Under the pieces are notes generated by a model. That model saw only the letters and a list, made by a program, of their open reading frames with translations. It was not told the DNA's origin and did no database searches. DNA of 64,000 nucleotides from an uncultured virus (IMG/VR IMGVR_UViG_3300009605_000022) (taxonomy: Duplodnaviria > Heunggongvirae > Uroviricota > Caudoviricetes), in the IMG/VR virus record IMGVR_UViG_3300009605_000022. One strand, 5' to 3'. Both the position numbers and the translations under genes were made by a program. This document shows positions 3,341-57,874 of the stretch, one piece after another; positions within the stretch are counted from its first letter, which is position 1, and each line of letters opens with the position of its first letter.

Positions 3341-3379
3341 TGACGATAGCTTTAAATACAATGAGGAGATATATTTAAT

Positions 3380-23808: not shown

Positions 23809-25674
23809 TTAAATCTCACACTTATCGCCAACACATGCGAACTCAGCTTTACCTTGTGTATTGTCTTGAGTTTCATACGATGACAATTCGTTATAGTTAA
23901 TTAGGGGGAGGGCCTTTATAAGCCTTTCGTAAGTTCTATGGTCAATTTCCTCATAAGGAGCTAATTTGTACTTACCTCCAGAGTATGGTAAAAAGGATAC
24001 TCCATTTATAATATCCCAGTTCTGGTACACCCAGTTACCTACTTCGAACCACTCATCATCTCTCACATACACAGTCATACTAGCATTGTGTTCACACCAG
24101 TTGTGTTGTAAGTTTTTATAGTGTTTAAGCTGGTCTAAAGCTGTTACATCCTTTCTGGTTATACAACCATCAGGAGATTTAACTGGGAATTCTAACACCC
24201 ATGTAGATGCATCTTGTTTTGTTTGGCCATTCTCAGGGTTACATTTTATACCTGCATCTTTCATCATATTAAATAATGGGTCACGAGCTGCTATTCTGTA
24301 GCGACGAATGTAGTATTGAGAGTATCGTGGGTGAACTCCAGACGCTGAATCAACCAGTTGCGAAACTGTACCTGATGGTTTAACACAAGTAGTTGCTGCT
24401 GGCATCTTTGTCTTTAGTATACCTGATGCTTTGCGAGATATACGCAAAACACGGCTTTTAAGGGCCGTTAAGGCCTCCGAGGTCAAAACCGAGGGGTTAT
24501 CCATCTGACCCGTTAAACTGACGCCTAGAAGCGCTTCTACGTCACAATTCTTTTTCCACTCCTTTCTTAAGTAAGGAAAGTTGGTGAAAGAACTCTGTAT
24601 TACACCTAACCATGTGGCCGTCTCGACTTTGTCTAACAGCGTATCAAGGTCATCGTCTTCTCTAATTACTACTTCCGAGAGGTTACAAAATTGCATATCT
24701 CGCAACATTATTTCTCCACAAGGATTAGTACCCTGTATGAGTGGAGCGTAACGACGTGAAGGGGCTTTAGCTTGAGCTGAGGAAAGATTGAATATACCTC
24801 TTTCTCCAGTTCCTGATTTAGCTAATGCTCCCCACTCTATCAAGAAGTCTGCTGCGGATGGCTTCTCCCTAAATATAGCACTATTATTTGCCATAGCACG
24901 TTTAATAGGGAAGGGCCAGTCCTTAGCGTGACGCATATCTTTGTCATCAAGGTCGCTCAAAGAGATTTGTGAGCTGCGTCTAACTCCACCTACAACAACA
25001 ATCTCTGCAATCTGATTACATATATCATGAGCTTCGAGGGTTGTAAGCTTTCGACCTTGAGCATTGTGCATAGTTTCACGAATGAAGTCATGCAACTTTA
25101 CTAGCGGTGCGGGACCAGAAGCACGTCCACCCATAGTCATGAGGCGTGCACCTTCTAATCTTATCGCTGAGTAATCGAAATAAATGTTTTGTCCATCATA
25201 GAGGCTTCCCATAAGTGTCTTTACTGAGTCGGCCCAACCTGCCTTAGAATCTTCTATAAGAATCTTAGTCAAAGCTTGACCGGATTTAATTTCAGGCACT
25301 TCAGGCAATTTCATTACTTCTTCTGATTCCACTGAAAAGCCAAACCCCGTTCCACACATCAGTACATATAGGCACTCGGCGAAAGCCTCGATGGAGTTAA
25401 TCTTAGCAAAGGAGCAGTTATATATGCAAGTATTATCAGCCTTAGCTGCGGGACCTGCTGCCCATAAGAAACGCATAGAGGGCATTACTGCAAACTCTAA
25501 CATGTATTTTCTAATCTTGTTTATAGTCTTCTCAGGTATATCAGGTCTTTCTGAAATTATAAAACCTAAAAATCTTTCTATTGTTTCAGGCCAATCTTCT
25601 CGCCTGTTCTCTTCTTCTAACCAACGTGAATACGTTCTCTTATATATAAATTCTGCTACTTCATTTTTAAACAA
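23809..25674 (-). CDS. nrdJ: Class II (adenosylcobalamin-dependent) ribonucleotide reductase
   Basis: YNCSF, GTNPCGEI, FCNLSE, TCVKPSGT and C-terminal CxxxxC motifs; no beta-subunit gene in the window. Confidence 0.9.
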   Translation of the reverse strand: MFKNEVAEFIYKRTYSRWLEEENRREDWPETIERFLGFIISERPDIPEKTINKIRKYMLEFAVMPSMRFLWAAGPAAKADNTCIYNCSFAKINSIEAFAECLYVLMCGTGFGFSVESEEVMKLPEVPEIKSGQALTKILIEDSKAGWADSVKTLMGSLYDGQNIYFDYSAIRLEGARLMTMGGRASGPAPLVKLHDFIRETMHNAQGRKLTTLEAHDICNQIAEIVVVGGVRRSSQISLSDLDDKDMRHAKDWPFPIKRAMANNSAIFREKPSAADFLIEWGALAKSGTGERGIFNLSSAQAKAPSRRYAPLIQGTNPCGEIMLRDMQFCNLSEVVIREDDDLDTLLDKVETATWLGVIQSSFTNFPYLRKEWKKNCDVEALLGVSLTGQMDNPSVLTSEALTALKSRVLRISRKASGILKTKMPAATTCVKPSGTVSQLVDSASGVHPRYSQYYIRRYRIAARDPLFNMMKDAGIKCNPENGQTKQDASTWVLEFPVKSPDGCITRKDVTALDQLKHYKNLQHNWCEHNASMTVYVRDDEWFEVGNWVYQNWDIINGVSFLPYSGGKYKLAPYEEIDHRTYERLIKALPLINYNELSSYETQDNTQGKAEFACVGDKCEI

Positions 25675-33188: not shown

Positions 33189-33511
33189 TGACCCTCTCTA
33201 TAAGCTTGTGCTTCTTCTGGTGTCATACGTGCAAATAACTTGTCTATGTTGTTCACCATTAGGTCTGATATCTTTATACCATACACATCACAAAGACGTG
33301 TTAAGTACCATAAGACATCACCCATCTCATCTATGATGAGCTCTTTGTTATCTACGTGGTCACGTATTTCTTTCTTAAATGCTCCACCGACTTCTCCGGC
33401 TTCATTCATTAAACCTATCATTAGGTATTCTTTTTCTCTACGCTTTGGATACTTCGCTGTTGTGCGAGTAAAATCCATATACGTAGATTCTATTCCTTTT
33501 ATATCTACCAT
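33185..33511 (-). CDS. mazG: MazG-like nucleotide pyrophosphohydrolase
   Basis: GLMNEAGEV...KK...DEMGDVLWY...NIDKL. Confidence 0.9.
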   Translation of the reverse strand: MVDIKGIESTYMDFTRTTAKYPKRREKEYLMIGLMNEAGEVGGAFKKEIRDHVDNKELIIDEMGDVLWYLTRLCDVYGIKISDLMVNNIDKLFARMTPEEAQAYREGQ

Positions 33512-33822
33512 ATATTCAACTCCTCAGGTAAATGTTTCATTACCTTCTTTCTCTCAGTTGGCATATATCTATATACCAAGTCTGACTTCTGGTCGCTCTG
33601 CACGACCCAAGGTTTTATAATAATTAAATCCTTCTCTCTGCACCAAGTTCTCTTTTTAAACTTACCACCAATCCTAACCATTCTCATATTCCCATCAGCA
33701 CATAGTGCTTTCATGCGGGAACCACCAGACATCTCAGTTACCACTGCGAATTGTTCACCCTTACGAGGGAACCTAATCTTTCTTGGCGTAGTAGGACTGG
33801 ACTGCTTTGAGTTCTTCGTCAT
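33505..33822 (-). CDS. eif1a: Archaeal translation initiation factor 1A homologue (aIF-1A)
   Basis: RFPRKGEQFAVVTEMSGGSRMKALCADG..RMVRIGGKFKKRTWCREKDLIIIKPW....KSDLVYRY; likely start at MTKNS (33822). Confidence 0.9.
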   Translation of the reverse strand: MTKNSKQSSPTTPRKIRFPRKGEQFAVVTEMSGGSRMKALCADGNMRMVRIGGKFKKRTWCREKDLIIIKPWVVQSDQKSDLVYRYMPTERKKVMKHLPEELNIW

Positions 33823-35248
33823 TATAATCTCCTTCTGCACTGAGCATAAAAGTTTCATAGTCCTTTATGTCAGAGTCTTTTGCTGACTTGAAGACCTTAT
33901 CATAGTCTCCTTTCTTTACGTCTATCGCTGTCTTTGCTCCCGAACCCAACTCAATGTTGTCCCCGCTAAACGGGTCAACAACTTGGATACGGCTACAACT
34001 GCGCCCAATGTATTCTGTAGATACTTCAGGCCACTCTTTTCGTACAAACTTTTTCGTTTCATCTATTAATTCACTCCAATTTATTTTTGCTACAGGCTCG
34101 TTAATAAGAGGACTCTTATAGTATAGTTTATGTTTACCATCATCTTCTACTTCTAAGAACCCAGCTACTAAGAGACCACCTATCACAGGTCTCAGTTTAG
34201 TAAACGGAAGCCCAGCAGCCTTAGCTGCTTTCTTCAGTTCATTCTCTGACATTTTAACAGTGTCACTATCTGCAAAACCAAATCTATCTAACCTTGTTTC
34301 AGGAAATAGTTTTAAGATATCAACACCGTGGCTTGGCATATGTAGACATTCTTCTACGAATGAATTGAGGTAAATCCTCAGTGCCAACCAGTTATGTTTG
34401 GGAGAGACCAGACCATATTCTACATCACCATCTTGCACTTTTGTTATCTCTTGTGGATAAAAACGTGCTATGGCATTGACTAATCGTAACAAATACTGCA
34501 CCTTCGAACGAGATACAGGGAAAGCTGATGGTATGGCTTCTGACAGAAACGGCGCACATGGGTTCTTTATCTTGAGAGCATGTTCATCATCTCTCAGTTC
34601 AATAGAATCCACTATATGTTTCCTTAGGCCATCTATTTCTTCATCGGACATAGTAAACATTGTTGAGGGTCTCGTAGCTGCATGCATTAGTTTATGGTCT
34701 ATTACCCTTTCTGTTTGTTCTACAGTGGGATTAGTGTGCATAATCATACACCTACGTTCCAATTCAGCATCAAAGTATGATGCTCCCTTTTCATTTTCAA
34801 CAGCTACACACATAAAGACGAACTGAGGATATAGTCTTTGTATAACTACATCACTAATAGTCACGTCAGTTTTTTTACGTGTTGCTGTGCGGCCATCGGC
34901 CCATGTTTTTATTATCTCCATTACACCTTCTGGTAATTTTTGAGCTTCGGGAATAGATATAAAACGTGCATTGTTTATATCGTCTGCGTTATACCACACT
35001 GCCGTCTCAGACAAATGTTCAATGGTATGAACCCAGTCGTCAGGAAGTAAATTAAATATTGCTTCCATCAATACAGTTTTACCTGTTCCACTATAGGCTT
35101 TGACACAGAAGTTATTGTCTTCCAGCAGATACGACAAGGATGAAGTTAAAGCTAATGCGTCTTCTCCTAAGAGAGGAAAGAGCTTACCATCTTTATCCTT
35201 TGCATTGTGGAAATATCTCAATAAATCGTGTATTTCATATGTTTTCAT
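33773..35248 (-). CDS. AAA+/P-loop ATPase, possibly the replicative helicase
   Basis: Walker A AYSGTGKT, Walker B-like ISIPE, 'ELERR' arginine finger; lies in the replication block. Confidence 0.55.
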   Translation of the reverse strand: MKTYEIHDLLRYFHNAKDKDGKLFPLLGEDALALTSSLSYLLEDNNFCVKAYSGTGKTVLMEAIFNLLPDDWVHTIEHLSETAVWYNADDINNARFISIPEAQKLPEGVMEIIKTWADGRTATRKKTDVTISDVVIQRLYPQFVFMCVAVENEKGASYFDAELERRCMIMHTNPTVEQTERVIDHKLMHAATRPSTMFTMSDEEIDGLRKHIVDSIELRDDEHALKIKNPCAPFLSEAIPSAFPVSRSKVQYLLRLVNAIARFYPQEITKVQDGDVEYGLVSPKHNWLALRIYLNSFVEECLHMPSHGVDILKLFPETRLDRFGFADSDTVKMSENELKKAAKAAGLPFTKLRPVIGGLLVAGFLEVEDDGKHKLYYKSPLINEPVAKINWSELIDETKKFVRKEWPEVSTEYIGRSCSRIQVVDPFSGDNIELGSGAKTAIDVKKGDYDKVFKSAKDSDIKDYETFMLSAEGDYNDEELKAVQSYYAKKD

Positions 35249-36016: not shown

Positions 36017-36189
36017 TCTATAGTTACTGTTGCTTTCCTTATGACATGTTCACCAGCAATTTCATCATACATCCATACAACATTATCACCTGCTTCTAAT
36101 TGCATACGTTCTAATATTGCATCTGGTATGTAAATTCTTTTATACTGGTCAATTGTCTTAACTGAACTGACTTGTTTTAATTCACTCAT
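36013..36189 (-). CDS. AbrB/MazE/SpoVT-like DNA-binding protein, 58 aa (not in ORF track)
   Basis: KTIDQYKRIYIPDAILERMQLEAGDNVVW; ATGA overlaps at both ends. Confidence 0.8.
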   Translation of the reverse strand: MSELKQVSSVKTIDQYKRIYIPDAILERMQLEAGDNVVWMYDEIAGEHVIRKATVTIE

Positions 36190-36563
36190 TTTATCTCCAC
36201 CAGTTTAGCACTGGTTTTTTCTTTCTTTTCTATAGCGACATCTAATATACCATTGTTCATAGTAGCTTCGACTGACTCATTGTCTAAGTCATAGTCAAAT
36301 CTTTTACTCCAGTTATATTCTTTGTCACCTTGTTTCGCTTCTACTGTAACTTTATTAGTTCCTACTTCTAAAGCAACATCTTCTTTACCAAATCCTGCTA
36401 ACTCAATAGTTACTGTTACAGTTCCGTTCTCTTCATTAACACTAACGGGGCTGTTCTCTTTCCTTCGAAGTTCTTGGTGCCATGCATGTGGTGCTGACTC
36501 TATCTCTCCTAAGAGGTCCATCCACATATCCATCATGGTTTCTATGTCACGACGAAATACCAT
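36186..36563 (-). CDS. Small heat-shock protein (Hsp20/alpha-crystallin)
   Basis: IELAGFGKEDV...ATMNNGILDVAIEK...LVEIK; GGAGG RBS before the ATG at 36563. Confidence 0.9.
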   Translation of the reverse strand: MVFRRDIETMMDMWMDLLGEIESAPHAWHQELRRKENSPVSVNEENGTVTVTIELAGFGKEDVALEVGTNKVTVEAKQGDKEYNWSKRFDYDLDNESVEATMNNGILDVAIEKKEKTSAKLVEIK

Positions 36564-36778
36564 CAGTCCTCCACTTTCGATGGACCATCTGCTACACGTT
36601 TCATTAATCTGAAGTAGGGCTTTGCTGCTCCTTCTTTCCAATAGGAGTTTCTGAACATTACAAATTCATCTCCTGCTTCTGATTTACCTGTGTAGTAAAC
36701 GTTTCCGTTCTTATCTGTGTTCCGGAACAATCCGGCTCTGAGCTCAAGGCTCGTTTTCTTAGTTTCTTTTTCTGTCAT
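36563..36778 (-). CDS. Small hypothetical protein (DUF736/PC4-like pattern)
   Basis: GLFRNTDKNGNVYYTG...MFRN...KPYFRL. Confidence 0.55.
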   Translation of the reverse strand: MTEKETKKTSLELRAGLFRNTDKNGNVYYTGKSEAGDEFVMFRNSYWKEGAAKPYFRLMKRVADGPSKVED

Positions 36779-38503: not shown

Positions 38504-39166
38504 TTACCATAGTGTTACCTTAAGTTTTATCCATGCTCTTACCCATCCATTAGGTTTAGGATTCTTGTAGCCTTTCCTAAGTTTCTTTGCACACCATCGA
38601 TACATTTCATTAGCGTATCTAATTGGTTTTCTAACATTTCTTGGTAGATATTTTAATCCACGTTCACCAAAGTAAAGTGACGCTTCAAACATATCTAAGT
38701 ATCTATTATGGTCTGTTCCTATATAATGGTATCCCCGTGCGACATCTTCATCATAGTCTCTGACGAAGTTAATTATCTGGTAAGCTCTACCTAAGTGCTC
38801 AGCGTAAGGATAAGCTGACTCTGGTGCATCTAATAGCTTAGCCATCATCAGTCCAATAACCTCAGCTGAACCTCTGCAATATCTTAGCATAGATTCATCA
38901 TCATGTATCTTATGATTCAAATCCATTCTCATAGAATTATAGAAGTCATGCTTCCATTCCATAGGCATATCATATTTTTTCTGAACGTATGCAAAGTTGT
39001 AAGCTAACCTCTCAAGGTCACCTACTACCTCGTCACCGTCGACTATGTTGTCTATGTGTCTTATAAATCCATACAACGCATATACATCCTTTTGCTTCTC
39101 AGTTGGAAAAGCTTTAGTGCAACATGCAAATGTTGTTGAACATTTATCCATTACTTCTTTCGTCAT
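38504..39166 (-). CDS. crtB: Phytoene/squalene synthase family protein
   Basis: VYALYGFIRHIDNIVD, YCRGSAEVIG, LGRAYQIINFVRDYDED..RG; likely start at MTKEV (39166). Confidence 0.85.
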   Translation of the reverse strand: MTKEVMDKCSTTFACCTKAFPTEKQKDVYALYGFIRHIDNIVDGDEVVGDLERLAYNFAYVQKKYDMPMEWKHDFYNSMRMDLNHKIHDDESMLRYCRGSAEVIGLMMAKLLDAPESAYPYAEHLGRAYQIINFVRDYDEDVARGYHYIGTDHNRYLDMFEASLYFGERGLKYLPRNVRKPIRYANEMYRWCAKKLRKGYKNPKPNGWVRAWIKLKVTLW

Positions 39167-39429
39167 GTTAATAACATGTATCCTACTGTAAATGATATAA
39201 CTATGAGACATGCCCATATGTATAACAGATAGTCGTAGGTTGTCCATTCCTCTTCTTTTTTATTCATTTGTTTTTTTACCTTTGGTTTTGCTACTATAAA
39301 GTGTGGAACTTTGTTCCAACAATCATCACAGAGATAGGCTCTGAGATGAGGGTCGTCACTCATGTAGTGTATTTTACACATCTTACAGTTGTGCCATAAT
39401 GCTTTGTAGTAAGTTGGATTAGGAGTCAT
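39163..39429 (-). CDS. Zn-finger protein with C-terminal TM helix
   Basis: CKMC...CDDC and hydrophobic tail. Confidence 0.55.
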   Translation of the reverse strand: MTPNPTYYKALWHNCKMCKIHYMSDDPHLRAYLCDDCWNKVPHFIVAKPKVKKQMNKKEEEWTTYDYLLYIWACLIVISFTVGYMLLT

Positions 39430-42185: not shown

Positions 42186-44303
42186 TCAAACTTTTATCAC
42201 CTTTCTTATTATTTTGCTTACCTCAGTAGATAACTTCTCGGTATCGTCAACAATTACATAGTTGGTAAACATCTGAGCCATACTTGATTCACGTGCACCT
42301 GAGATACCTATCTGAATAACACTCCAACCTTGTCCTTCTATATGTCTGACACACTTCTTAGTATGTGCGATTCCATCGAAGTGTCTGTAGTTTTTAGCTG
42401 AGGGCTCTCCATCTGAGATAACAATCATAAGTCTGTTACTACCCATTGATGGTGATTCAGCTTTTACTCTGTCAGCTGAGGCTAAGATAGCCATACCGTC
42501 TCGGTTCTCTGACCGAGCTCTCATAGCTCCCATAGCTTTTAAGTCACTCTTATAAGTTGGTGACCAGTAACAAGACATGTTTGTCTCACCGGTTCCATCC
42601 CAATCGTAACCGTCAGCAGTGTGACCATAAACCCATAAGTTTAGTTTGTCATTATCTTTGAGTGCTTCACGTATAGCGATTGCACTCTCACGTGCTTTTT
42701 GCATTTTGTATGAACCCATGCTACCTGACTCGTCAACTAAGAGACATACATCTAATGGTTTGTCTTCGTCAACAATAATGTTTTTGAATAAGTCAGTTCG
42801 ACCGAGGGGTATCTTATGTAACATACGTTTATCTAATCTACCTCTTGGTTGGTTGCGAATAGTGTAGGCTTGAGTGTTACCATAGAGTTGTATACGTTTC
42901 TTCAGTTGACTGATGCTCTGTTTCATTCTTGATACACCGTTGTCGTATGAATACTTGGCGTCGGTATGACTCTTTTGGTTTCTCCATGTAACTTTAGTTC
43001 CTTGTTTTAAACCGAGAGCTCTACCTGTGTCCCACTTTTCTTCGCTATACATAGTGTCTTCTAACTCTGTGATAGCTTTTTCTAAGTCTGTGCTGATAGT
43101 ATCTAAGTCTGCACTGTAGTCAGCCATCTCAGTTGATGCACTCTCTACTCCGTCCATGATAGTTCGCATAGGTCCGGCTCTATCTTCATACTTTTTGTCA
43201 TCGGTAGCTTTCTGAACTAATTTATCTAAGATGTCATCTAACTGACTCTCAGTTAATAATTCTTTTGTCTTATCATCCCAATCATTCATAAGCCTATCCA
43301 TTTCAGCTTCAGCTTTTTCTTTGGGTGATGGACCATCCTTTGCATCCTTCTCAGCTATATCTTTTGCCAACTGATTCATATACTCATAGATAGTTACAGT
43401 TGCTTCCCACATACTTTCTCGGTTGTTGTTTGAATTGACTAAAGCTCGAGCAAAGAACTGAATGTGATTCGCATGTCTTTTCTTTCTCTCTTCATCTAAA
43501 GCTGAGGGATATCTAACTAAGGCCAGTAAAGTATTGATTACATCACCGAACTCATTTACTTTTTCCATCTTGCTTCCATGCTTATCGAAGTAATGCTCTT
43601 TCACTTTTGCAATGTAGTGAGTGAACCCACCATGTGTTTTACCTAACTGAGACTCGATGAACTCATCTTCGAGTATGTTAGCTATATTATGTATAAGCTT
43701 TTCTTGAGGTGGTCTCAGCTTATGGTCATAAGCATATACTCTTTCTAATTTTAATAAAGGCTTACTGTAAACTAAATGTAACTTCTCGTGTATAGCAAGA
43801 CCAGCAACAATATCTAACTTAGAATCGTCTCGGTCTAACAATGTGCCGTCAACATAGATTAATCCACGGTTGATGTTGGAATAACTTTTCTCGGTTGCAT
43901 AGTTTAATACATGTTTTACAGTTGGGTCTACAACTTTACAGAGAGAATCAAGATGAGCTTTGTGTTTGACTAATCTTTTTTCTTTGTCCGCTCTGTCGAA
44001 GTGAGATGATGCACCCCACATAGAGGTCATAGCTCCGACGCCTCGGTTCCACCATGAACCACCACTACCCCACGTGAATCCGCTACTTCTACCATAAAGG
44101 TCACCAGTAGCTGAGACAGTTGGTGCAGTTGAACTGTATGCTTTTGCTACGTGTGGAGTGAGGAAAGGGTCGACTGTATTGTATTTGATACCACAGGCTT
44201 TACAGTTCCCGTGACCATCATCCGCAGTCCAGTCATCACATGCGTCACAGAAGTCATCTTCCGTGTCCTCAGCCCAATCGTCTATTGAATGTCCGTAATC
44301 CAT
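42186..44303 (-). CDS. VWA-domain protein (CobT/NorD-like, MoxR partner)
   Basis: MIDAS LVDESGSM, ISDGEP; N-terminal HEKLH and ILED. Confidence 0.9.
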   Translation of the reverse strand: MDYGHSIDDWAEDTEDDFCDACDDWTADDGHGNCKACGIKYNTVDPFLTPHVAKAYSSTAPTVSATGDLYGRSSGFTWGSGGSWWNRGVGAMTSMWGASSHFDRADKEKRLVKHKAHLDSLCKVVDPTVKHVLNYATEKSYSNINRGLIYVDGTLLDRDDSKLDIVAGLAIHEKLHLVYSKPLLKLERVYAYDHKLRPPQEKLIHNIANILEDEFIESQLGKTHGGFTHYIAKVKEHYFDKHGSKMEKVNEFGDVINTLLALVRYPSALDEERKKRHANHIQFFARALVNSNNNRESMWEATVTIYEYMNQLAKDIAEKDAKDGPSPKEKAEAEMDRLMNDWDDKTKELLTESQLDDILDKLVQKATDDKKYEDRAGPMRTIMDGVESASTEMADYSADLDTISTDLEKAITELEDTMYSEEKWDTGRALGLKQGTKVTWRNQKSHTDAKYSYDNGVSRMKQSISQLKKRIQLYGNTQAYTIRNQPRGRLDKRMLHKIPLGRTDLFKNIIVDEDKPLDVCLLVDESGSMGSYKMQKARESAIAIREALKDNDKLNLWVYGHTADGYDWDGTGETNMSCYWSPTYKSDLKAMGAMRARSENRDGMAILASADRVKAESPSMGSNRLMIVISDGEPSAKNYRHFDGIAHTKKCVRHIEGQGWSVIQIGISGARESSMAQMFTNYVIVDDTEKLSTEVSKIIRKVIKV

Positions 44304-44662
44304 TGTTCTACCTTTTCTATTTCGTCTTCGTCTTCAGCTATGAACTTGAACTTAAAGCACTCGAGTGACTTCTTAGCTGAGCCTACACTACACTGATAGA
44401 CAAACATGTCTTCAGCTGAGACTAATCCTAATGCCATCTCACTTGCTTGATTCCTATTCATAGTTGGTTTTACAGGAATAATAATATCTTCATCCTGTAG
44501 TAATCTTCTTTTGTATGCACCGATGTGTCTACCATTTATCTCAGTTTCTGGAAATACATCCTTAATAATGTGTGAACACATAGTGGGTTTCAATCCTAAC
44601 TGTAATAACATTTTAGCCAACTGATGCCAATACGTTTGTTTTCTGTTTCCTTTCTTACTCAT
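44282..44662 (-). CDS. Hypothetical protein
   Basis: Likely start at MSKKGNRK (44662). Confidence 0.55.
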   Translation of the reverse strand: MSKKGNRKQTYWHQLAKMLLQLGLKPTMCSHIIKDVFPETEINGRHIGAYKRRLLQDEDIIIPVKPTMNRNQASEMALGLVSAEDMFVYQCSVGSAKKSLECFKFKFIAEDEDEIEKVEQWITDIQ

Positions 44663-44824
44663 AATAAAACTCCGGTTCTCTATCTTCGAAATCGCTAACG
44701 AGCTGAGCAATGATGCCATAAATAATACTATTCTCCATATCTGTAGCCGGTTCGAGTGTTGAGAAGTAATCAGCTAAGATAGCAAACTCTTCCATGTCTA
44801 ACCCTACAACGAACTTAGGCAAAC

Positions 44825-45988
44825 TTAGTCCCCCATAGATTGAATGACTTGTATAACTCTAACTCTCTCAGTGTCGTCACCTGCTTGAACAGGGTAGAAT
44901 GGTAGACAGGTATGTTTGAGTGCATCGATTAAACTCATGCCGTCAACTACTAACTCAGCTACTGCTAAACACATACGTGTTGAGACAGCAGTCGTAAGTT
45001 CGTCTGAACTGTGTAGGTCACGCACTCTCTTAGCGAAGTCTACTATCTTCTCTGCTGAGTAGTCATCTAACTGAGGGTTACGAATCATAACTAATTCTTT
45101 TTCTTTACTCATAGGTAAGTAGTCTAACTCATAGATACCACCTGTGAACCTATCTTTCCATGCTCTATCTAAATCATGAGATGCACCGAGATACTCTCGG
45201 CCTATGTTAGCAGTAGCATAGAAGAATGCTTGACTGTCAACTGAGACAGCGTCAGCGTCTTCACTCTCATCGAGTGCTAAATACTTTTGACCATCTAACA
45301 CTGGCATGAGAATATTAGCTAAGTCACCTGTTCGGTCACGGGTAACCTCATCTAACATAATGAATGAGTTCTGTTGAATTGCTTGGACAAACCGAGATGG
45401 TTTGAACCATGTTCCTGCTTCTTTGTCATACTTAGTATCACCTAACAGTTTAGCTGAGGGATTCATAGTATCACCAAAGTTGAAAGAATAAAATTCTTTA
45501 TTGGTAATGTCTGCTAATATCTTACCGAGACTACTCTTACCACATCCTGATGGACCTGTGATGAGAATGTTCTTACCTCGAAATATATTGCGTAACATTG
45601 TGTAGAATGTAATGTTATCGGCGAACTTAAATTCCTCCGGTATTTGAACTGAGCCTCTTAGCTTAGCCATTACTGTTTGCTTTTCTTCTACGGGTTCCGG
45701 TTCACTGGCCGGTGCCTCTACTTGCATGGGGTCTTCCTCAGTTGGTTCGTCTTTACCGAACAAACTGCCTAAACCCTCGTGAGTCGTTTCTGATTCCATT
45801 GATTCTCCAGTATCATCTTCCTTTATAAAGGTATCGGTCATTGGACTGAGACCTGCTTTCCATCTCTTTATACCACGGGTATCGGCTGAGACATGCCATA
45901 TTCTTCCGTCACCACCTTTCTTCTCATGTCCTAAGTCATACCATGTCGCGGACTGAGTAGGTGATGGTCTTGTTTTTCTTTCTGCCAT
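44825..45988 (-). CDS. MoxR/CbbQ/CobS-like AAA+ ATPase
   Basis: GPSGCGKS, MLDEVTR, ATAN, DRAWKDRF, STR. Confidence 0.9.
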   Translation of the reverse strand: MAERKTRPSPTQSATWYDLGHEKKGGDGRIWHVSADTRGIKRWKAGLSPMTDTFIKEDDTGESMESETTHEGLGSLFGKDEPTEEDPMQVEAPASEPEPVEEKQTVMAKLRGSVQIPEEFKFADNITFYTMLRNIFRGKNILITGPSGCGKSSLGKILADITNKEFYSFNFGDTMNPSAKLLGDTKYDKEAGTWFKPSRFVQAIQQNSFIMLDEVTRDRTGDLANILMPVLDGQKYLALDESEDADAVSVDSQAFFYATANIGREYLGASHDLDRAWKDRFTGGIYELDYLPMSKEKELVMIRNPQLDDYSAEKIVDFAKRVRDLHSSDELTTAVSTRMCLAVAELVVDGMSLIDALKHTCLPFYPVQAGDDTERVRVIQVIQSMGD

Positions 45989-45990
45989 AT

Positions 45991-46341
45991 TTAGTTGGAC
46001 CTCTTTCTTTTTATTAATCTTTGGTCGACACGAGATTTATCGAAGCCATAGGTTCTCTGTCCATGTATTCCATAGTTCTCACCTTTGACCTGATATTTCT
46101 TTACTGAGTTAACTACTCGTGCTCTGTCTATTGGTTCCAATGTGCTGAGGTCATCCACGAACTTACCTAAGTTCGCACTTACAGACCAAGCATTATCTTC
46201 TACGTCTCCGTAGAGTGAAGTTAAGAACTCCCTCAACACAGTGAACCTTTTATCTTCAGTTGACCCTACACTTAACAAAGGGACTTTGTCAACGTGCTGA
46301 GTCATAAAGTTATTGAACTTATTAAATGTTTCTACATTCAT
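45991..46341 (-). CDS. Hypothetical protein
   Basis: AGGTGA RBS. Confidence 0.6.
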   Translation of the reverse strand: MNVETFNKFNNFMTQHVDKVPLLSVGSTEDKRFTVLREFLTSLYGDVEDNAWSVSANLGKFVDDLSTLEPIDRARVVNSVKKYQVKGENYGIHGQRTYGFDKSRVDQRLIKRKRSN

Positions 46342-46447
46342 AGTTCACCTGTAATATAATCATTTACTAAACAGTGTTCGCAACTGCTTTTATTTACCTC
46401 ATGACCACCAGTGTCATAAGTTGAGTATTCACCACAATCTACGCAGT

Positions 46448-46741
46448 TCATTGTTTCCTCACTGTAACAAACATTGCGTTCTTAGTTCGGTTGTTTACTT
46501 TCTGAGCTAACCATGCCTCAGTTCCTATCTCTGCCATATAGTCAACAGTGTCTTTGTATACTCCGAACGTTAGACATTGATGTGGCTTAGGTGCATGACG
46601 GAAATACTTCTCAGTTCGAGCAATCCTTTTAGCACGTATCTTACTACCGTCTCGGTTGGCTGTCCTGAGAGACACTTGTTGTAGTTGGGCTGGGCTTAGT
46701 TGTTGTAGCATTTCAGCTATTGAGTCGATGTTACTTTTCAT
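46448..46741 (-). CDS. Hypothetical protein
   Basis: TATA-like element at about 46766-46777. Confidence 0.6.
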   Translation of the reverse strand: MKSNIDSIAEMLQQLSPAQLQQVSLRTANRDGSKIRAKRIARTEKYFRHAPKPHQCLTFGVYKDTVDYMAEIGTEAWLAQKVNNRTKNAMFVTVRKQ

Positions 46742-46789
46742 CTGATACTACATAGTAAACGCCCTTTATAAGCTTTTCCCTAAATCGGG

Positions 46790-47325
46790 GAGACCAACTG
46801 AGATTAACGTGTTTAAAACTATACTGAGAGCTATCCCTATATTAACTATATTAAGATATGGCTCTATTATGCAATATAGAGATATAATAAAAATGCTTTA
46901 TAGAGCTTGATTTGTAGAGCTATGATATACTGAGCAATGCTTAACTGAGCATGTTTTATTAAGCAATGCATAACTATGCTTATAATATATACACCCCCCT
47001 ACTATATAATACTTTGTCTCAGTTCACACATAACTGATAAAAGTTTTTTAAAACAGGCTCTACTAAGCAATTTTCTCATGCTCAGTTAGCGACAATGAAC
47101 TTAAACTGGTTTTAGTTTGGTATAGCTCAACTGAGAAGTGCTCAATTACTCACTGAGGGGGCCTGATAGAGCTTGCTCTTTTCTCACCCTGCCCTACAGA
47201 TAAACTGAGAGCTTGTTTTCTCACCCTCGGTTAGCGAGCTGAGAGATTTTTCTCATCGAGCCCTATAAAGCTAGGCTGAGAGAAGCTAAAAATAAAAAGA
47301 GAACTTAATAGAGCTGAGCTGAGAA
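46790..47325. repeat. Non-coding region with many short repeats (CTGAG, TAGAGC, TTTTCTCA); candidate origin or control region
   Basis: AGAGCTTG..TTTTCTCACCCT at 47168-47190 and 47208-47227; about a dozen CTGAG/CTCAG copies; AT-rich left half. Confidence 0.5.
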
Positions 47326-47326
47326 A

Positions 47327-47345
47327 TCCATACGTGTGGAAAAAT
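47327..47345. repeat. Module-boundary palindrome, copy 1
   Basis: TCCATACGTGTGGAAAAAT. Confidence 0.75.
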
Positions 47346-47375
47346 AAAAAAAGTTAGTTTATATAGGGGTGGGTA

Positions 47376-47575
47376 GGAGGATTTAATGTATACCTCCAAA
47401 CGCATTATGCCACTACATAGTAGATGCGTTACCAGTCTAACCTTCCTCCAGCAGTTGCTTCTCGGTTGGTTAATCCTGTGCCTTAGTCCGTGGCGGACTT
47501 GTTCGGCCATACCCGATTACGGAAGAGCTACTTCCATAAATGTAAAAGTGGGCAGTTTTCTGAGTTGCCCAGCTG
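47376..47575 (+). ncRNA. Candidate ~200-nt structured RNA (strand uncertain, + favoured)
   Basis: Five consecutive hairpins; plus-strand TTTATATA at 47358-47365; stem 47549-47571 extends by G-U pairs only on +. Confidence 0.4.
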
Positions 47576-47589
47576 CTTGATGTATTGAC

Positions 47590-47922
47590 TTACTTAAGCA
47601 ATCCTGCTTTCTTCATAGCTTTTTTCAATTCAGCTTCGGTAATTTTACCAGACTGAAGTGAAGCGACTACGGAATCAACAGATACTCCTTTGCGTTTTGC
47701 TCCTCTGAATGCTTGTAACTCGTTTGTGCGAGATGCAACCATTGAGGCGAACTTGTCTTCGTTCCTAAGCACATCTGATATTGCTATCATTGTGTCGTAT
47801 TTTACCCCTGTCGGGTAACGCTTACTTTCTCCGACGCCCTCGAATCCGAGATGGTCCAGTAAACCTGAAACCACCTTTTCATCTTTAGGTGCCCAGAGAT
47901 AATCCATGTTTGCTTTACTCAT
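47590..47922 (-). CDS. Hypothetical early protein
   Basis: AGGAG RBS; type-A promoter upstream. Confidence 0.7.
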   Translation of the reverse strand: MSKANMDYLWAPKDEKVVSGLLDHLGFEGVGESKRYPTGVKYDTMIAISDVLRNEDKFASMVASRTNELQAFRGAKRKGVSVDSVVASLQSGKITEAELKKAMKKAGLLK

Positions 47923-47935
47923 GTTTTCTCCTTAC

Positions 47936-47964
47936 TTACCAATAGAGTGTCCCTATTTAAGTTT
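47936..47964 (-). promoter_or_regulatory. Type-A promoter, copy 1
   Basis: (+) TTACCAATAGAGTGTCCCTATTTAAGTTT. Confidence 0.75.
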
Positions 47965-48202
47965 AACCCCTGCTGACTATTTGTCTGAGGTGCATTCTGT
48001 CAAAGATGTGAGGATTAGATAATCTCACGGACTCTGCTATCTCAAGATGCTCACCGCGGGAACCTGTTCCTACTGGTATCATCTCTTTATACATTCCATA
48101 CTTACCGTATGGGGTCGTGCCGACTTCAACAAAGTAGTCGACTGTCTGATTTTGACCGGCTCTCCAAGGAAGAGCTGTCTTAGTTTGAGTTGCTTTGCTC
48201 AT
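47963..48202 (-). CDS. Hypothetical early protein, probably leaderless
   Basis: ATG about 22 nt from the type-B TATA box. Confidence 0.7.
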   Translation of the reverse strand: MSKATQTKTALPWRAGQNQTVDYFVEVGTTPYGKYGMYKEMIPVGTGSRGEHLEIAESVRLSNPHIFDRMHLRQIVSRG

Positions 48203-48206
48203 AATA

Positions 48207-48255
48207 TACCAAGGACACCACCCTATATAAAGCTTTTTTCACCCGAGTGGAAAAA
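48207..48255 (-). promoter_or_regulatory. Type-B promoter plus boundary palindrome, copy 2
   Basis: (+) TACCAA..CTATATAAAGCTTTTTTCACCCGAGTGGAAAAA. Confidence 0.8.
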
Positions 48256-48260
48256 TAAAA

Positions 48261-48690
48261 AATGCAACTTCACCTGAGGCTCCGCGTGTTTAAGAAACAC
48301 CTCAGGGAGCGGTTGCCCGAGAGCACATTAATCTGCATAGGTAGTGCTACACGTGGGGTGTGACCTGTCGCCAGTCAAAAGGATATCCTTCACGAAAGGC
48401 GAACACAAGCATGAACAGGTGTGATACTCATAGCTTAACGGATTGATTCTATAACAGGGATAAAGTGATTCAAAGGTGATACATAATGTTAGCTACACGT
48501 CGTTCTAAAACTTAGATGCGCATCGACCGGAAAGGGATTGGGTCAGCACTGTTCAGCTAGTATTTGTTATGTGAATGTCTCGTTGTTGCGTATGGTTCGA
48601 TTTTGTTTCCTTGTCAGGTCACGTGTTACAGCTGATAACTGTAAGTGAGCGGGTGCAATACTATTTTGCTATTTTCATCTCCCCGCTCTG
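48261..48690 (-). ncRNA. Candidate ~430-nt structured ncRNA with its own promoter and U-rich terminator
   Basis: No minus-strand ORF in the track; starts directly under the type-A promoter; long-range GUGACCUG/CAGGUCAC helix; nested 3' helices; ends at UUUUUUAUUUUU. Confidence 0.7.
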
Positions 48691-48721
48691 TATTACCAAT
48701 AGAGTGTCTCTATATAAGCTT
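48691..48721 (-). promoter_or_regulatory. Type-A promoter, copy 2
   Basis: (+) TATTACCAATAGAGTGTCTCTATATAAGCTT. Confidence 0.8.
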
Positions 48722-48946
48722 TTCTCCCATGGACTTTATCTCACTGACATACACGTCACCGAGTTCAAAAGAACCATAAGTAAAATCTGATTTGACAGCG
48801 CAGAACCAACGGGCGTGTGGGTTCTTCGCTTCATTCTCAGCGTTTTGGTATTTCTTTAATACTCTCCATTCAAAGCCACGTGGGCCAGTCCAGACCTCGT
48901 AAGGGTCATCTGTTTTGCGGGTTTTACCGCACATGTTTTTAGTCAT
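48710..48946 (-). CDS. Conserved-looking small viral protein, probably leaderless
   Basis: KTRK.DDPY...EWRVLKKYQ...ARWFCAVKS...ELGDVY. Confidence 0.75.
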   Translation of the reverse strand: MTKNMCGKTRKTDDPYEVWTGPRGFEWRVLKKYQNAENEAKNPHARWFCAVKSDFTYGSFELGDVYVSEIKSMGEKLI

Positions 48947-48950
48947 ACAA

Positions 48951-48998
48951 TACCAAGGGTGGGGGTCTATATAAAGCTTTTTTCACACGAGTGGAAAA
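48951..48998 (-). promoter_or_regulatory. Type-B promoter plus boundary palindrome, copy 3
   Basis: (+) TACCAA..CTATATAAAGCTTTTTTCACACGAGTGGAAAA. Confidence 0.8.
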
Positions 48999-49389
48999 CC
49001 TCGAGGCGGGGGCAAAGGCCATAGCCCCCTAGAGGTGTCAAAACTGCTTACGAAATACGTCTGGCCTTTTTGATAATCTTATTCGTTCTCTTCTTCCAAC
49101 CTCGTTCTAAGTAGGTATCGTAGCTCATAAGCCACACCCACAGCAAGGTGCATCTTCACACCCGCAGAGGACAATATAGTCTCCTGCTTCACTTATACCA
49201 GAGATGACCATGTCATCTAAAATATCTAAGATGCTCTTCATTTGGTCAACCCCAGCTTGATTGCTTTTAGTTGGTCCAATACTCCGGAATCAATTTTATT
49301 CTTTTGTATGGTTCTGCGTGCTACTCTCCTGAAGCGGAAAGCGTTTCTGGTGTCTTGTATTGTTTGTTCTAACATGTTTATCTCCTATC

Positions 49390-49554
49390 TTACCATACTC
49401 CACAGGCTATATAAAACCTTTCATCATCGAACCGTGGGTTCTCTGCTTCATACTTTTTTGCGAAGTCTTTTGCTACCTGCATCTTTACCGATGCCGGCCA
49501 TCCTGTTGTCCTTATTAGGTCTGCTGTTGCTTGAAAATCTTTTCTTGTGTTCAT
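49390..49554 (-). CDS. Small protein (TRKDF...A.I...NPRFD..RF..AC pattern)
   Basis: GAGG RBS; start at MNTRKDF; followed by further short ORFs down to about 49050. Confidence 0.7.
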   Translation of the reverse strand: MNTRKDFQATADLIRTTGWPASVKMQVAKDFAKKYEAENPRFDDERFYIACGVW

Positions 49555-49569
49555 ATTTATTTCCTCGTA

Positions 49570-49600
49570 TATTACCAATAGGGTGTCCCTATATAAGCTT
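49570..49600 (-). promoter_or_regulatory. Type-A promoter, copy 3
   Basis: (+) TATTACCAATAGGGTGTCCCTATATAAGCTT, identical to 50320-50350. Confidence 0.8.
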
Positions 49601-49742
49601 ACCGGTGCCTCCACTTTCTCATTCTCACCAGCATACTTTGAGTTTGTAAACTCCTGCTGTAGAACTCTTCGAATTCCATTTTACCACCATATGATTTATA
49701 GTGATGCCAATTTGCTAACCTTTGTGTTTCGTATTTAGTCAT
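49599..49742 (-). CDS. 47-aa hypothetical protein, probably leaderless
   Basis: Start at MTKYETQ directly under the type-B promoter. Confidence 0.6.
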   Translation of the reverse strand: MTKYETQRLANWHHYKSYGGKMEFEEFYSRSLQTQSMLVRMRKWRHR

Positions 49743-49746
49743 AGTA

Positions 49747-49796
49747 TACCAACGGGTGTGTCTATATAAAGCTTTTTTCACACGTGTGGAAAAGCT
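49747..49796 (-). promoter_or_regulatory. Type-B promoter plus boundary palindrome, copy 4
   Basis: (+) TACCAA..CTATATAAAGCTTTTTTCACACGTGTGGAAAAGCT. Confidence 0.8.
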
Positions 49797-50132
49797 GGCG
49801 CCCCGCCGACTTAAAAGAAGCCGGTTATGGGGGTAACCTGCGTTTAGCTGTCCTACCATTATAGGCTGGCTTACTAAACTGAAGATGCGTCGCTACGTTT
49901 AACGCTCGGGCGGACTTATGCCTAAGGCCCTTCGCCATCACTTGTCAGGCGTCTCCTATTGTCCACGATGCTGGACAGTTTATTAGACTGACTCATACAC
50001 TTGCCCTTTCCGTTGGGGGAACCTACTCCTTCGGCCTCCTTCTTACAGTGTTCGTGGACTCACGGAACATAATCTCTTTTGGGCTGAGTGTAATACTATT
50101 TTACTATTTTCATCGTCTCAGCCCGTTAGAGG
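49797..50132 (-). ncRNA. Candidate ~335-nt structured ncRNA
   Basis: More GC-rich than the genome; no credible ORF; begins with the same hairpin motif as 48647-48688; several hairpins; G-U pair in CCGGCUU/AAGUCGG supports the minus strand. Confidence 0.65.
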
Positions 50133-50140
50133 TGCGTGGT

Positions 50141-50209
50141 TTATAATTTTCTTGTTGCGTATGATATTCCTACTAACCATGTTAGTAAGCTACTTTGGTA
50201 TGTGTTCAT
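50141..50209 (-). CDS. 22-aa microprotein
   Basis: MNTYQSSLLTWLVGISYATRKL; GGAGG RBS; TAATG coupling. Confidence 0.45.
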   Translation of the reverse strand: MNTYQSSLLTWLVGISYATRKL

Positions 50210-50307
50210 TAGTCGCCTCCTTTTCTTATTAAGTATTGATAGTGAAATGGTCTACCGTTTTTCTTAAAGTCTTTTGCTAGCTTTGCCCAGTGTTGTCTTC
50301 GTGTCAT
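50209..50307 (-). CDS. 32-aa basic microprotein
   Basis: MTRRQHWAKLAK...; AGAGG RBS under the type-A promoter. Confidence 0.55.
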   Translation of the reverse strand: MTRRQHWAKLAKDFKKNGRPFHYQYLIRKGGD

Positions 50308-50319
50308 GTTTTTCCTCTG

Positions 50320-50350
50320 TATTACCAATAGGGTGTCCCTATATAAGCTT
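50320..50350 (-). promoter_or_regulatory. Type-A promoter, copy 4
   Basis: (+) TATTACCAATAGGGTGTCCCTATATAAGCTT. Confidence 0.8.
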
Positions 50351-50441
50351 ATCCCCTGAACTCCGTCCAGCACTCCCAACATAGTTGAGAGTTGAAAAGT
50401 GTATAAGTCATGCATGCTGATTTATTACATTCTTCGCACAT
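50349..50441 (-). CDS. 30-aa Zn-finger microprotein
   Basis: MCEECNKSACMTYTLFNSQLCWECWTEFRG. Confidence 0.6.
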   Translation of the reverse strand: MCEECNKSACMTYTLFNSQLCWECWTEFRG

Positions 50442-50442
50442 T

Positions 50443-50559
50443 TTATTCCTCACCGGTCCAAAATGTTGCGAACATTTCAGTATCGCAATCTTCACATAGT
50501 CCACCGAATAATTCGATATCTTCCAAGCCACAGTCTTCACATTGTTGTTTTAATTCCAT
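50443..50559 (-). CDS. 38-aa Zn-finger microprotein (not in ORF track)
   Basis: MELKQQCEDCGLEDIELFGGLCEDCDTEMFATFWTGEE; GAGG RBS. Confidence 0.6.
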   Translation of the reverse strand: MELKQQCEDCGLEDIELFGGLCEDCDTEMFATFWTGEE

Positions 50560-50687
50560 TTGTATTCCTCGCTAATATACCAACGCGAGGTAACATATAT
50601 TACTTTGGGTGGGGCCTATCGTCGTGAACCTCAAAATCCTAAACAGGGGTATATAAGGGGGCCAATCCCGCTCGCGTTTTTTGGTGA

Positions 50688-50715
50688 AATTTTTTTTCAC
50701 ACGTGTGGAAAAATT
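50688..50715. repeat. Module-boundary palindrome, copy 5
   Basis: AA-T-run-CACACGTGTGGAAAAATT. Confidence 0.8.
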
Positions 50716-50762
50716 GCTGGGGGTTTATATACCCCCTTTTCCGGCGAATGGACTATATATAC

Positions 50763-50903
50763 TTATAGCTGTTCGTGAATCTGGTCAACGATGTCATGAA
50801 GTATGTCTAACATATAACCACGAGTTAATACGTCATTATGACCATACTTATTTTTTTGCATCGAACCGATGTCAACTTTATCTAAATCAATTTCGAATTT
50901 CAT
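50763..50903 (-). CDS. 46-aa hypothetical protein
   Basis: MKFEIDLDKVDIG...; GGAGG RBS; ATGA overlap. Confidence 0.6.
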   Translation of the reverse strand: MKFEIDLDKVDIGSMQKNKYGHNDVLTRGYMLDILHDIVDQIHEQL

Positions 50904-51733: not shown

Positions 51734-51824
51734 ATTACTTACCTCTTACCTATACAGGGGCAACACCCTATATAAGCTTAAGTGTTTTAAAGGAGGGGGT
51801 ATATAAGTAAATCCAAGCAAATGG

Positions 51825-51902
51825 AAAAAAACGCAAAAAAAATGACAAAAAAATGCAAAAAATCGCGCAAAAAATGCGCTAAAAAAACGCCAAAAACGCG
51901 CC
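51825..51902. repeat. Seven helically phased A-tracts (intrinsically bent DNA)
   Basis: A5-A8 tracts start at 51825, 51835, 51847, 51857, 51869, 51881 and 51892. Confidence 0.8.
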
Positions 51903-52265
51903 AATGTCGCGCGCTATAAATTTATTAAAAATCGCGCTAATGTATATATTATCTTATTATATTATCTTTTTCAGTATACCCCCGTCTAAAAAAATCATGC
52001 CCCCACCTAAACACACAGGCGCCTAGGGGTTTAAACAAATCGAGCCATTTTTTGAAAGCACTAAATAAGAATATACTATAAGCACTGTGTTTAAACTATA
52101 TATCGCTAAGTATCTCTTGCATTATTAATCAAGCTCTTTTAACCATGCTCTATTAGTCTCTCTTACGCGCGTAGGATAGCCAGTGAACTGAGAAGCAAGC
52201 TCTACATACCACAACTCTTATATACTCTGAGGTAGTATAATTATATACAAAAAAGGAAACTAACT

Positions 52266-57837: not shown

Positions 57838-57874
57838 GGAAACCTTTATATAAGCGCGTGATGTAAAATATAAC

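Follow-up and report, generated by a model that had tools for sequence, protein, structure and literature searches.

A conserved stand-alone gene predicted to encode a structured non-coding RNA of about 440 nucleotides in an uncultured marine tailed virus

Few large RNAs with intricate folds and unknown function have been described, and recent structures show that several of the virus-borne ones build RNA-only assemblies. To our knowledge, almost no structured non-coding RNAs are known from viruses of archaea. The ROOL and GOLLD RNAs of phages form cages, and they form homo-oligomers partly via kissing loops (PMC12286853). In vitro, manA RNAs form 8-, 10- and 60-mers through kissing loops, according to a preprint (10.64898/2026.07.01.735769). 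Here we analyse an RNA encoded in a 64,000-nucleotide (nt) stretch of DNA from an uncultured virus of the Caudoviricetes (IMG/VR record IMGVR_UViG_3300009605_000022). We call this whole stretch the window, and positions refer to it. An earlier note, written from the letters alone, had pointed to a stand-alone non-coding transcription unit at 48261-48690. We find a gene-free unit on the minus strand, from 48689 to about 48252, that has a promoter box, no conserved open reading frame (ORF) and a terminator made of a stem and a U-run. Its own promoter and terminator, together with helices supported by covariation, show that this marine tailed virus has a stand-alone gene for a structured non-coding RNA about 440 nt long. 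All features of this RNA given below are on the minus strand.

The transcription unit and its relatives

Read along the minus strand from 48724 to 48251, the region contains, in order, a promoter module, some 440 nt in which no ORF is credible, a long stem rich in GC and a U-run. The elements listed in the earlier note are all present in the window where it placed them. It had seen no ORF beyond a 5-codon minigene, and the minus-strand ORFs inside 48261-48690 indeed all have 26 amino acids (aa) or fewer. The longest plus-strand ORF (71 aa, 48575-48790) overlaps the promoter. Among 64 full-length homologues, the longest ORF in the region varies from 31 to 85 aa and is in the sense direction in 26 and antisense in 38. 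No ORF is conserved in frame, strand or length. Pairwise comparison of the conserved core with the window gives 487 runs of inserted or deleted bases, 440 of them 1 nt and 35 of them 2 nt long. The minigene sits within a 27-nt insert that 16 of the 67 unique homologues carry.

The promoter box (48711..48724) consists of a purine-rich stretch and the A/T-rich 8-mer CTTATATA at 48718-48711. The module reads AAAAGCTTATATAG and is followed by a 21-nt spacer (48690..48710) that holds the inverted repeat ATAGAG-ACA-CTCTAT and ends in the conserved TTGGTAATAC. Conservation was judged from an alignment of 51 distinct promoters, and the box upstream of the RNA is kept in 63 of 67 homologues. Over the whole window, the motif ARSYTTAWATAG has 9 sites where 0.48 are expected, and RSCTTTAWATA has 14 where 0.65 are expected. 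Sites of the latter motif lie, for example, at 3348, 7737, 38325, 40307, 57842 and 63464. Box sites lie on the locally coding strand except for one (27096, plus strand), and some precede structural genes. The recurrence of the promoter that the earlier note described is borne out: the module occurs 4-5 times in the early region (repeat families D2/D4), and a small gene follows the other copies. We take the note's "type-A promoter" to be an archaeal-style TATA/BRE-like box in preference to a bacterial promoter. Seven genes have their ATG 20-27 nt downstream of the A/T-rich box and lack a ribosome-binding site, and in the leaderless modules at 48231, 48975, 49770 and 57845 the spacing from box to ATG is fixed at 20-22 nt. 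Archaeal TATA-box promoters with leaderless mRNAs have such geometry; bacterial promoters do not. When the spacing of the leaderless modules is applied to the RNA unit, we infer that transcription starts at A 48689, about 22 nt downstream of the box and at the foot of the first hairpin. The sole ground for the early expression proposed in the note is where the unit lies, next to the replication module in a group of small genes. Promoter type gives no timing, because the same box precedes structural genes at 57842 and 63464.

The next gene, encoding 79 aa, is preceded by a separate conserved box at a distance of exactly 21 nt from the ATG, as it is in relatives. A U-run and a separate promoter box therefore intervene between the RNA and this gene, which is not the arrangement of a cis-regulatory leader or riboswitch. 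As a separate observation, the element TTTTCCAC-N4-GTGAAAAAA precedes each leaderless module (48250-48221, 49001-48965, 49796-49760 and 50715-50679, minus strand). Its 4-nt centre varies freely in relatives, and the element may serve as an operator-like inverted repeat or else belong to the stop signal before it.

To collect homologues, 28 loci were fetched from viral contigs with the 79-aa and 78-aa proteins encoded on either side of the RNA. Between these two genes, the sequence is 70-88% identical in 15 viral contigs. A motif built from the invariant columns re-found the same viral contigs and, in addition, 73 metagenome loci, all of which are homologues by nhmmer (E 1e-52 to 4e-130). The same motif had no match in 185,579 prokaryote genomes (one per species), and the RNA appears to be confined to viruses. 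After removal of duplicates, 67 unique sequences were left, with a complete core in 64. A covariance model made from the alignment finds one copy in the window and no second one, and detects a distant copy in another viral contig (L024, 4100-4366; 35.7 bits, E 8.6e-10), which is on the other strand and in a different context and orientation. Two new contigs hit by a looser pattern (L120 and L122) were not confirmed by the covariance model. In L025 (3228-3640) and L024 (3370-3900), the same promoter box follows the gene for the 78-aa protein, which is 70-74% identical in these relatives, and is itself followed by about 400 nt of different, apparently non-coding sequence. The slot after the 78-aa gene may thus hold different RNAs in different lineages.

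The RNA matches no described family among those compared. The nearest record (G001) does not include the region, as it stops at window position 46767. A blastn search of deposited phages found no close relatives, and the TerL and PolB proteins have less than 25% identity to those of deposited phages. A cmscan of 46500-50500 with the 4227 models of Rfam 15 (including manA, GOLLD, ROOL, OLE, raiA, 6S, SRP, RNase P, ribozymes and riboswitches) gave no match inside 48251-48690 at E up to 10. The same scan of eight diverse homologues and the two distant loci, at E up to 1, gave solely manA matches in flanking DNA. The Ocean-VI motif, which is not in Rfam, is a different RNA, judging by its alignment in the supplement of PMC2864571. 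A literature search by keyword found no description of this RNA, although a motif published under another name would escape such a search.

Fold of the RNA and its palindromic tip

To establish the fold, we read helices from the 64-sequence alignment, including four nested long-range helices missed by RNAalifold, and then counted pairs. The resulting 57 proposed pairs were assessed in 59 distinct sequences, with controls in which partners were slid by 1-3 columns and with 500 shuffles. The proposed pairs are formed in 91.8% of cells, versus 28.1-43.7% in the slid controls, and 35 of them show changes on both sides (compensatory changes), versus 9-12. The covariation score is 0.298, compared with 0.104 in the shuffles, none of which reached it. 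RNAalifold on 14 sequences gave 44 pairs, 18 of them with compensatory changes, including the long-range helix and the 3′ stem. Its other folds were implausibly irregular or lacked helices P3-P6, and were replaced by the helices read from the alignment. A naive all-against-all covariation scan returned mostly lineage noise. The homologue search with covariation analysis that the earlier note had proposed as a check thus turned up strong covariation.

In the aligned sequences, the fold begins with two 5′ hairpins that vary and continues with a 263-nt core, which helix P1 closes; another variable hairpin and the terminator stem follow. The core forms a three-way junction of P1, a short arm (Pd-Pf) and a long rod of six helices (P4-P5-P6-P3-P2-Pa), whose forked, three-way tip carries Pb and Pc. 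P1 joins GUGACCUG (48615..48622) to CAGGUCAC (48360..48367) and is the long-range helix of the earlier note. It is 100% paired in the 59 sequences, three of its eight pairs show changes on both sides, and in the distant homologue L024 it reads GGCACGC/GCGUGCC. The alternative ACACGUG/CACGUGU pairing suggested by the same note is not conserved, being specific to the window or its lineage. The hairpin adjoining P1 (Pd-Pe-Pf, 48368..48402; UCGCC..UC..GAAGGAUAUCCUUU..GA..GGCGA) is likewise well supported, with Pd 100% paired and compensatory at 5/5 pairs, and Pe-Pf 99.8% paired and compensatory at 5/8. The arm is retained in L024.

The central rod (48429..48594) comprises P4, P5, P6, P3 and P2, separated by the conserved internal loops AAUCCCUUNCCGG, UGUAUCACC and UCCCUGUUAUA, which are almost invariant in sequence. 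One conserved loop may resemble the 3′ end of 16S rRNA, a likeness to which we give no weight. P4 (48594-48588/48434-48429) is 98.3% paired, with a change from A-U to U-A in seven sequences and a variant without the bulge in the two most distant members. P5 (48584-48581/48440-48437) is 90.8% paired, and three of its four pairs are compensatory. P6 (48576-48573/48449-48446) aligns badly, but native partners pair better than permuted ones, and none of 1000 permutations reached the native mean. P3 (48570-48565/48456-48451) has one change from U-A to C-G, in two sequences; P3 and P6 counted together are 83.4% paired. P2 (48547-48544/48495-48492) is 95.3% paired, with weak compensatory support. Four sequences have jointly lost a pair of 12-13-nt segments, one from either side of the rod.

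The rod tip (48499..48527) is closed by Pa (GUCG/CGAC), which is 100% paired and has compensatory changes in three of its four pairs. Pa encloses the palindrome Pb (GAUGCGCAUC, 48524-48515) and the hairpin Pc (48515-48505), which aligns poorly, is 39.9% paired and is uncertain. In the eight columns of Pb, all four mirrored positions are complementary in 59 of 59 distinct sequences. This is the case even though the bases change: the central pair is CG in 30 sequences, GC in 27 and UA in 2, and the pair next to it is GC in 53, CG in 3, AU in 2 and UA in 1. A perfect palindrome of 8-10 nt occurs at this place in all 64 copies, in eight spellings with the cores AUGCGCAU, AUGGCCAU, UCGCGCGA, UCCUAGGA, UCCGCGGA, ACGGCCGU, UCAGCUGA and GAUGCAUC. 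Within one molecule the central four bases would be in the loop, and therefore a hairpin does not need complementarity there. The pattern suggests selection for pairing between two copies of the RNA, which would be its simplest account.

Outside the core, the RNA is more variable. The first 5′ hairpin (48647..48688) has the stem GAGCGGG/CCCGCUC, which covaries (GAGUGGGG/CCCCACUC and GAGAGAGU/ACUCUCUC in relatives), and holds the 27-nt insert at 48653-48679. The second (48626..48644) reads UUACAGUU-AUC-AGCUGUAA; this stem, already recognized in the earlier note, is conserved with compensatory changes (ACAG/CUGU to AUGG/CCAU). In some lineages, one short palindromic hairpin replaces both. The element GAUGAAAAUAG.AAAAUAGUAUU.CAC of the insert also occurs at 50088-50114 (minus strand), in a copy 93% identical to it, and forms a hairpin loop in both RNAs. 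Given that so few homologues of the RNA carry the insert, this 27-nt element seems to behave like an insertable module. An interpretation of the insert as a box C/D or kink-turn element was dropped: the sole Rfam match, to archaeal box C/D sRNA, lies at the paralogous insert (50081-50124) and is at chance level, with 24.1 bits versus a gathering score of 45 and an E-value of 4.4.

On the 3′ side, the AGCAC/GUGCU hairpin of the earlier note (48322..48348, AGCAC...GUGCU in the window) survives as a position: relatives have a hairpin of differing sequence and length there, but the exact sequence is not conserved and some lack the hairpin. The terminator stem (48264..48316; GCAAC-CG-CUCCCUGAGGU ... 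CCUCAGG-U-GA-A-GUUGC) has pairs with compensatory changes according to RNAalifold. Its outer and middle stems, which the note had proposed, are present with eight complementary arm variants in the 48 of 67 sequences that fit the search pattern, but the inner GUGUUU/AAACAC hairpin is not conserved. Nine unique homologues have no such stem, and their match breaks off at position 348-353 of the 436 in the model. The unit ends in the U-run UUUUUUAUUUUU (48251..48262), as the note had said. A run of at least five U occurs within the last 60 nt of 47 of the 64 full-length homologues, and four more have only U4.

How the RNA might act

Parts of this stretch are present in 17 runs recorded as RNA. Contigs of four metatranscriptome runs, from four studies, were compared with 46300-50800, and 12 of 16 pieces lie within 48318-48684. 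One contig of 266 nt is identical to the window over 48359-48624. The metatranscriptome check named in the earlier note was thereby answered in part, as contigs in RNA libraries were found, but contigs give presence only, and not strand, level or ends. The flanking genes have no cover by RNA contigs, which we do not use as evidence because the runs were chosen with the RNA stretch itself. One contig joins 48684 to 50140, which points to a strain with another arrangement. The note's inference, a large viral ncRNA that forms a transcription unit in itself, is supported: the unit is conserved, covaries strongly, has no conserved frame and occurs in RNA-library contigs.

We propose the following explanation, which, taken as a whole, we regard as evenly balanced between right and wrong. 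Very likely, the host polymerase would transcribe the unit from the TATA-like box near 48689, with release at the long stem and U-run. The RNA might then work in trans as a folded particle, two copies of which would join tip-to-tip via the palindrome, a step to which we give slightly less than even weight. By analogy with known RNA assemblies, the outcome would be a dimer or, with further contacts, a larger RNA-only assembly. More tentatively, the invariant internal loops could be the working surface, to which a host or viral factor would be bound in the course of infection. It is conceivable, though we would not presume it, that the RNA founds a new class of large structured RNAs of marine archaeal viruses that self-associate via a maintained palindromic tip, and that it forms an RNA-rich early module with the manA RNA and the stretch 49797-50140 discussed below. 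If this is true, the virus would use RNA-only particles, rather than proteins, for part of the takeover of the cell.

Several observations weigh against this explanation. Perfect palindromes are not limited to Pb: one lineage has one in Pc, the short 5′ hairpin has another, and Pf is palindromic in 44 of 59 sequences and of the UUCG type in 14. Because of these, a bias at the DNA level toward perfect palindromes may be an alternative source of Pb. P2 and Pc are weakly supported. The folding energy of the whole unit, one of the checks named in the earlier note, is unremarkable: the 451 nt have z = -0.84, and among 100 shuffles 18 reach a fold just as stable. For the 263-nt core, 14 representatives range in z between -0.27 and -3.44 (mean -1.7), and only about half of the predicted folding energy comes from the consensus helices. 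Since thermodynamics alone is weak, the case for structure rests on covariation. The preference of the pairs for one strand is mild (149 G.U versus 59 A.C cells; 91.8% versus 89.1% paired). The RNA evidence consists of contigs, and RNA libraries can hold DNA. The host is deduced from promoter architecture and one gene.

The RNA could also act in trans as a monomer, a sponge or mimic whose invariant loops would capture a protein or complex of the host, in which case the palindrome would be merely a small capping hairpin. The 6S, CsrB-type and Y RNAs act as such protein-binding RNAs, and a rod with large, near-invariant internal loops is the type of surface that they use. The unit's own promoter and terminator, its place among small genes of unknown function and the incomplete maintenance of other palindromic hairpins, such as Pf, are all in keeping with this possibility. 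However, it gives no account of central complementarity in Pb in 59 of 59 sequences through eight spellings, and no Rfam family of such RNAs matches; we consider it possible but doubtful. The RNA might instead be a precursor from which the P1-closed core is cut out and possibly circularised, or might itself be a ribozyme. Archaea circularise some RNAs, and the RNA-library contigs of three studies stop at 48623-48625, one contig (48359-48624) spans almost exactly P1 to P1, and in one run the sequence after 48623 is adapter. Moreover, what lies outside the core, 5′ hairpins and 3′ parts alike, is variable or dispensable. These ends could equally reflect processing to the core or assembly breaks where strains start to differ, and they do coincide with strain divergence. 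Back-joined contigs were not seen among the RNA-library contigs of the four runs, although contigs cannot settle excision or circularisation; no ribozyme family matches, and no conserved bulge-helix-bulge outside P1 was found by eye. A precursor is thus an unlikely explanation.

Given that the RNA lies directly upstream of the 79-aa gene in close relatives, it could be a cis-acting leader, either an attenuator or riboswitch-like, that controls this gene, and read-through is conceivable in the nine homologues without a terminator stem. Yet the unit stops at the stem and U-run, a separate box stands 21 nt ahead of the ATG of the downstream gene, the distant homologue occurs in another context and orientation, and the conserved core is far larger than known leaders; we judge such a role to be quite improbable. 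Many perfect palindromes, in an early region that is close to the replication genes and near repeat arrays, are what a DNA-level element would also offer, i.e., a replication, packaging or regulatory site of inverted repeats that is transcribed incidentally. This is a very remote prospect, as helices whose strands are separated by up to 247 nt covary, which is expected of RNA and not of DNA sites to which proteins bind, the palindromes are free to vary in sequence, G.U pairs are commoner than A.C, and there is a dedicated promoter and terminator. Finally, the ORFs of up to 85 aa in single homologues and the minigene in the window could be taken for a decayed or very short protein-coding gene. 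With no ORF conserved in frame, strand or length, with 1-nt indels dominating and with the minigene's insert in 16 of 67 homologues, we find this hardly credible. Self-association through the palindromic tip is the mechanism that we consider the most likely.

Host, neighbouring elements and known systems

The host is probably an archaeon, given the TATA-like box with leaderless ATG geometry and a homologue of aIF-1A. The latter is a 117-aa protein of the aIF-1A/eIF-1A family (33505-33858, minus strand; Pfam eIF-1a; NCBIfam NF003084, 99.5 bits with a cut-off of 91) that has no counterpart in deposited phage records. The virus also encodes a family B DNA polymerase, a B12-dependent ribonucleotide reductase and CobS/CobT-like proteins. 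No RNA polymerase was found in the 64 kb. An N4-like hairpin promoter used by a virion RNA polymerase was accordingly rejected, and the giant ORFs look like tail proteins. Scans of genome contigs with the motif and with TerL found no link to a host. The thaumarchaeal "Marthavirus" has CobS, radA and ATPases (10.1101/2020.04.02.019802). The virus may be of this type or of the group II "magrovirus" type. Auxiliary genes on the minus strand belong to the squalene/phytoene synthase family (38504-39247), Hsp20 (36186-36641), the B12-dependent ribonucleotide reductase (23809-25674) and a CobS-like AAA ATPase with a CobT/VWA protein (42186-45988).

Several other elements are found near the RNA gene. 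A manA RNA (RF01745) is located at 47366-47539 on the minus strand, about 800 nt downstream of the RNA, and scores 64.6 bits versus a gathering score of 55.2. It follows the stop of a 110-aa gene (47590) with no promoter box between them, and is itself followed by a U-run and about 560 nt of gene-free DNA. As no promoter box precedes it and a U-run follows it, this manA lies at the 3′ end of a unit and is not a 5′ leader. Such a placement bears on whether manA is a gene-control element at all. manA is conserved in relatives, occurring in 7 of 10 loci searched. The gene-free 570 nt at 46776-47345 (minus strand) contain 11 CTCAG on one strand, where about 0.9 are expected from the window-wide rate. 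This region is patchily conserved in relatives, and may be an array of binding sites or an origin. A second ORF-less stretch of about 340 nt (49797-50140, minus strand) lies between a 22-aa ORF and the next promoter and is 79-85% identical in relatives. RNAalifold on eight sequences, run without controls, predicted 83 pairs, 31 of them with compensatory changes. This stretch, too, probably encodes a structured RNA, which is no paralogue of the one studied here. At 51815-51914, where leftward and rightward gene blocks diverge and the cumulative GC skew turns, phased A-tract repeats with a spacing of 10-13 nt resemble origin-like bent DNA.

We now compare the RNA with known systems. Like 6S RNA and other rod-shaped sequestering RNAs, it forms a long irregular rod with large conserved internal loops. 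RNAs of the 6S type are abundant and act in trans. The 6S model does not match this RNA, however, and we know of no 6S-like sequestering RNA in archaea or their viruses. The phi29 pRNA forms rings by loop-loop contacts through two different complementary loops and sits on the packaging motor. Dimer-linkage hairpins of the retroviral DIS type are closer in principle, because their palindromic loops let two identical molecules pair, as proposed here (PMC7357161). The RNA has no sequence or model similarity to either; its one self-complementary 8-10-mer sits where a long rod ends, and nothing connects the RNA with packaging.

The manA RNAs are related by circumstance: they occur in the same virus and its relatives, are marine and virus-associated, and are reported to self-assemble through kissing loops in the preprint cited above. 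By contrast, the RNA described here has no match to the manA model, forms a rod rather than a compact multi-hairpin fold, and is of another size. It also differs from ROOL and GOLLD, in that it is shorter, with a 263-nt core, matches neither model and probably has an archaeal host. ROOL and GOLLD are frequently, though not obligatorily, adjacent to tRNA genes, and ARAGORN found no tRNA genes in the 64 kb. Our comparisons point to a new family within a known kind, the large structured viral RNAs of unknown function. This family comprises about 90 natural sequences with a fold supported by covariation, and it has a sharply testable feature in a tip that is self-complementary through eight spellings. 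The similarities to ROOL and GOLLD are that all are virus-borne, several hundred nucleotides long, elaborately structured with covariation, without known function and encoded by stand-alone genes. The tip, which is always palindromic, would fit kissing-loop assembly of the kind seen in those RNAs, with oligomers of the present RNA proposed by analogy.

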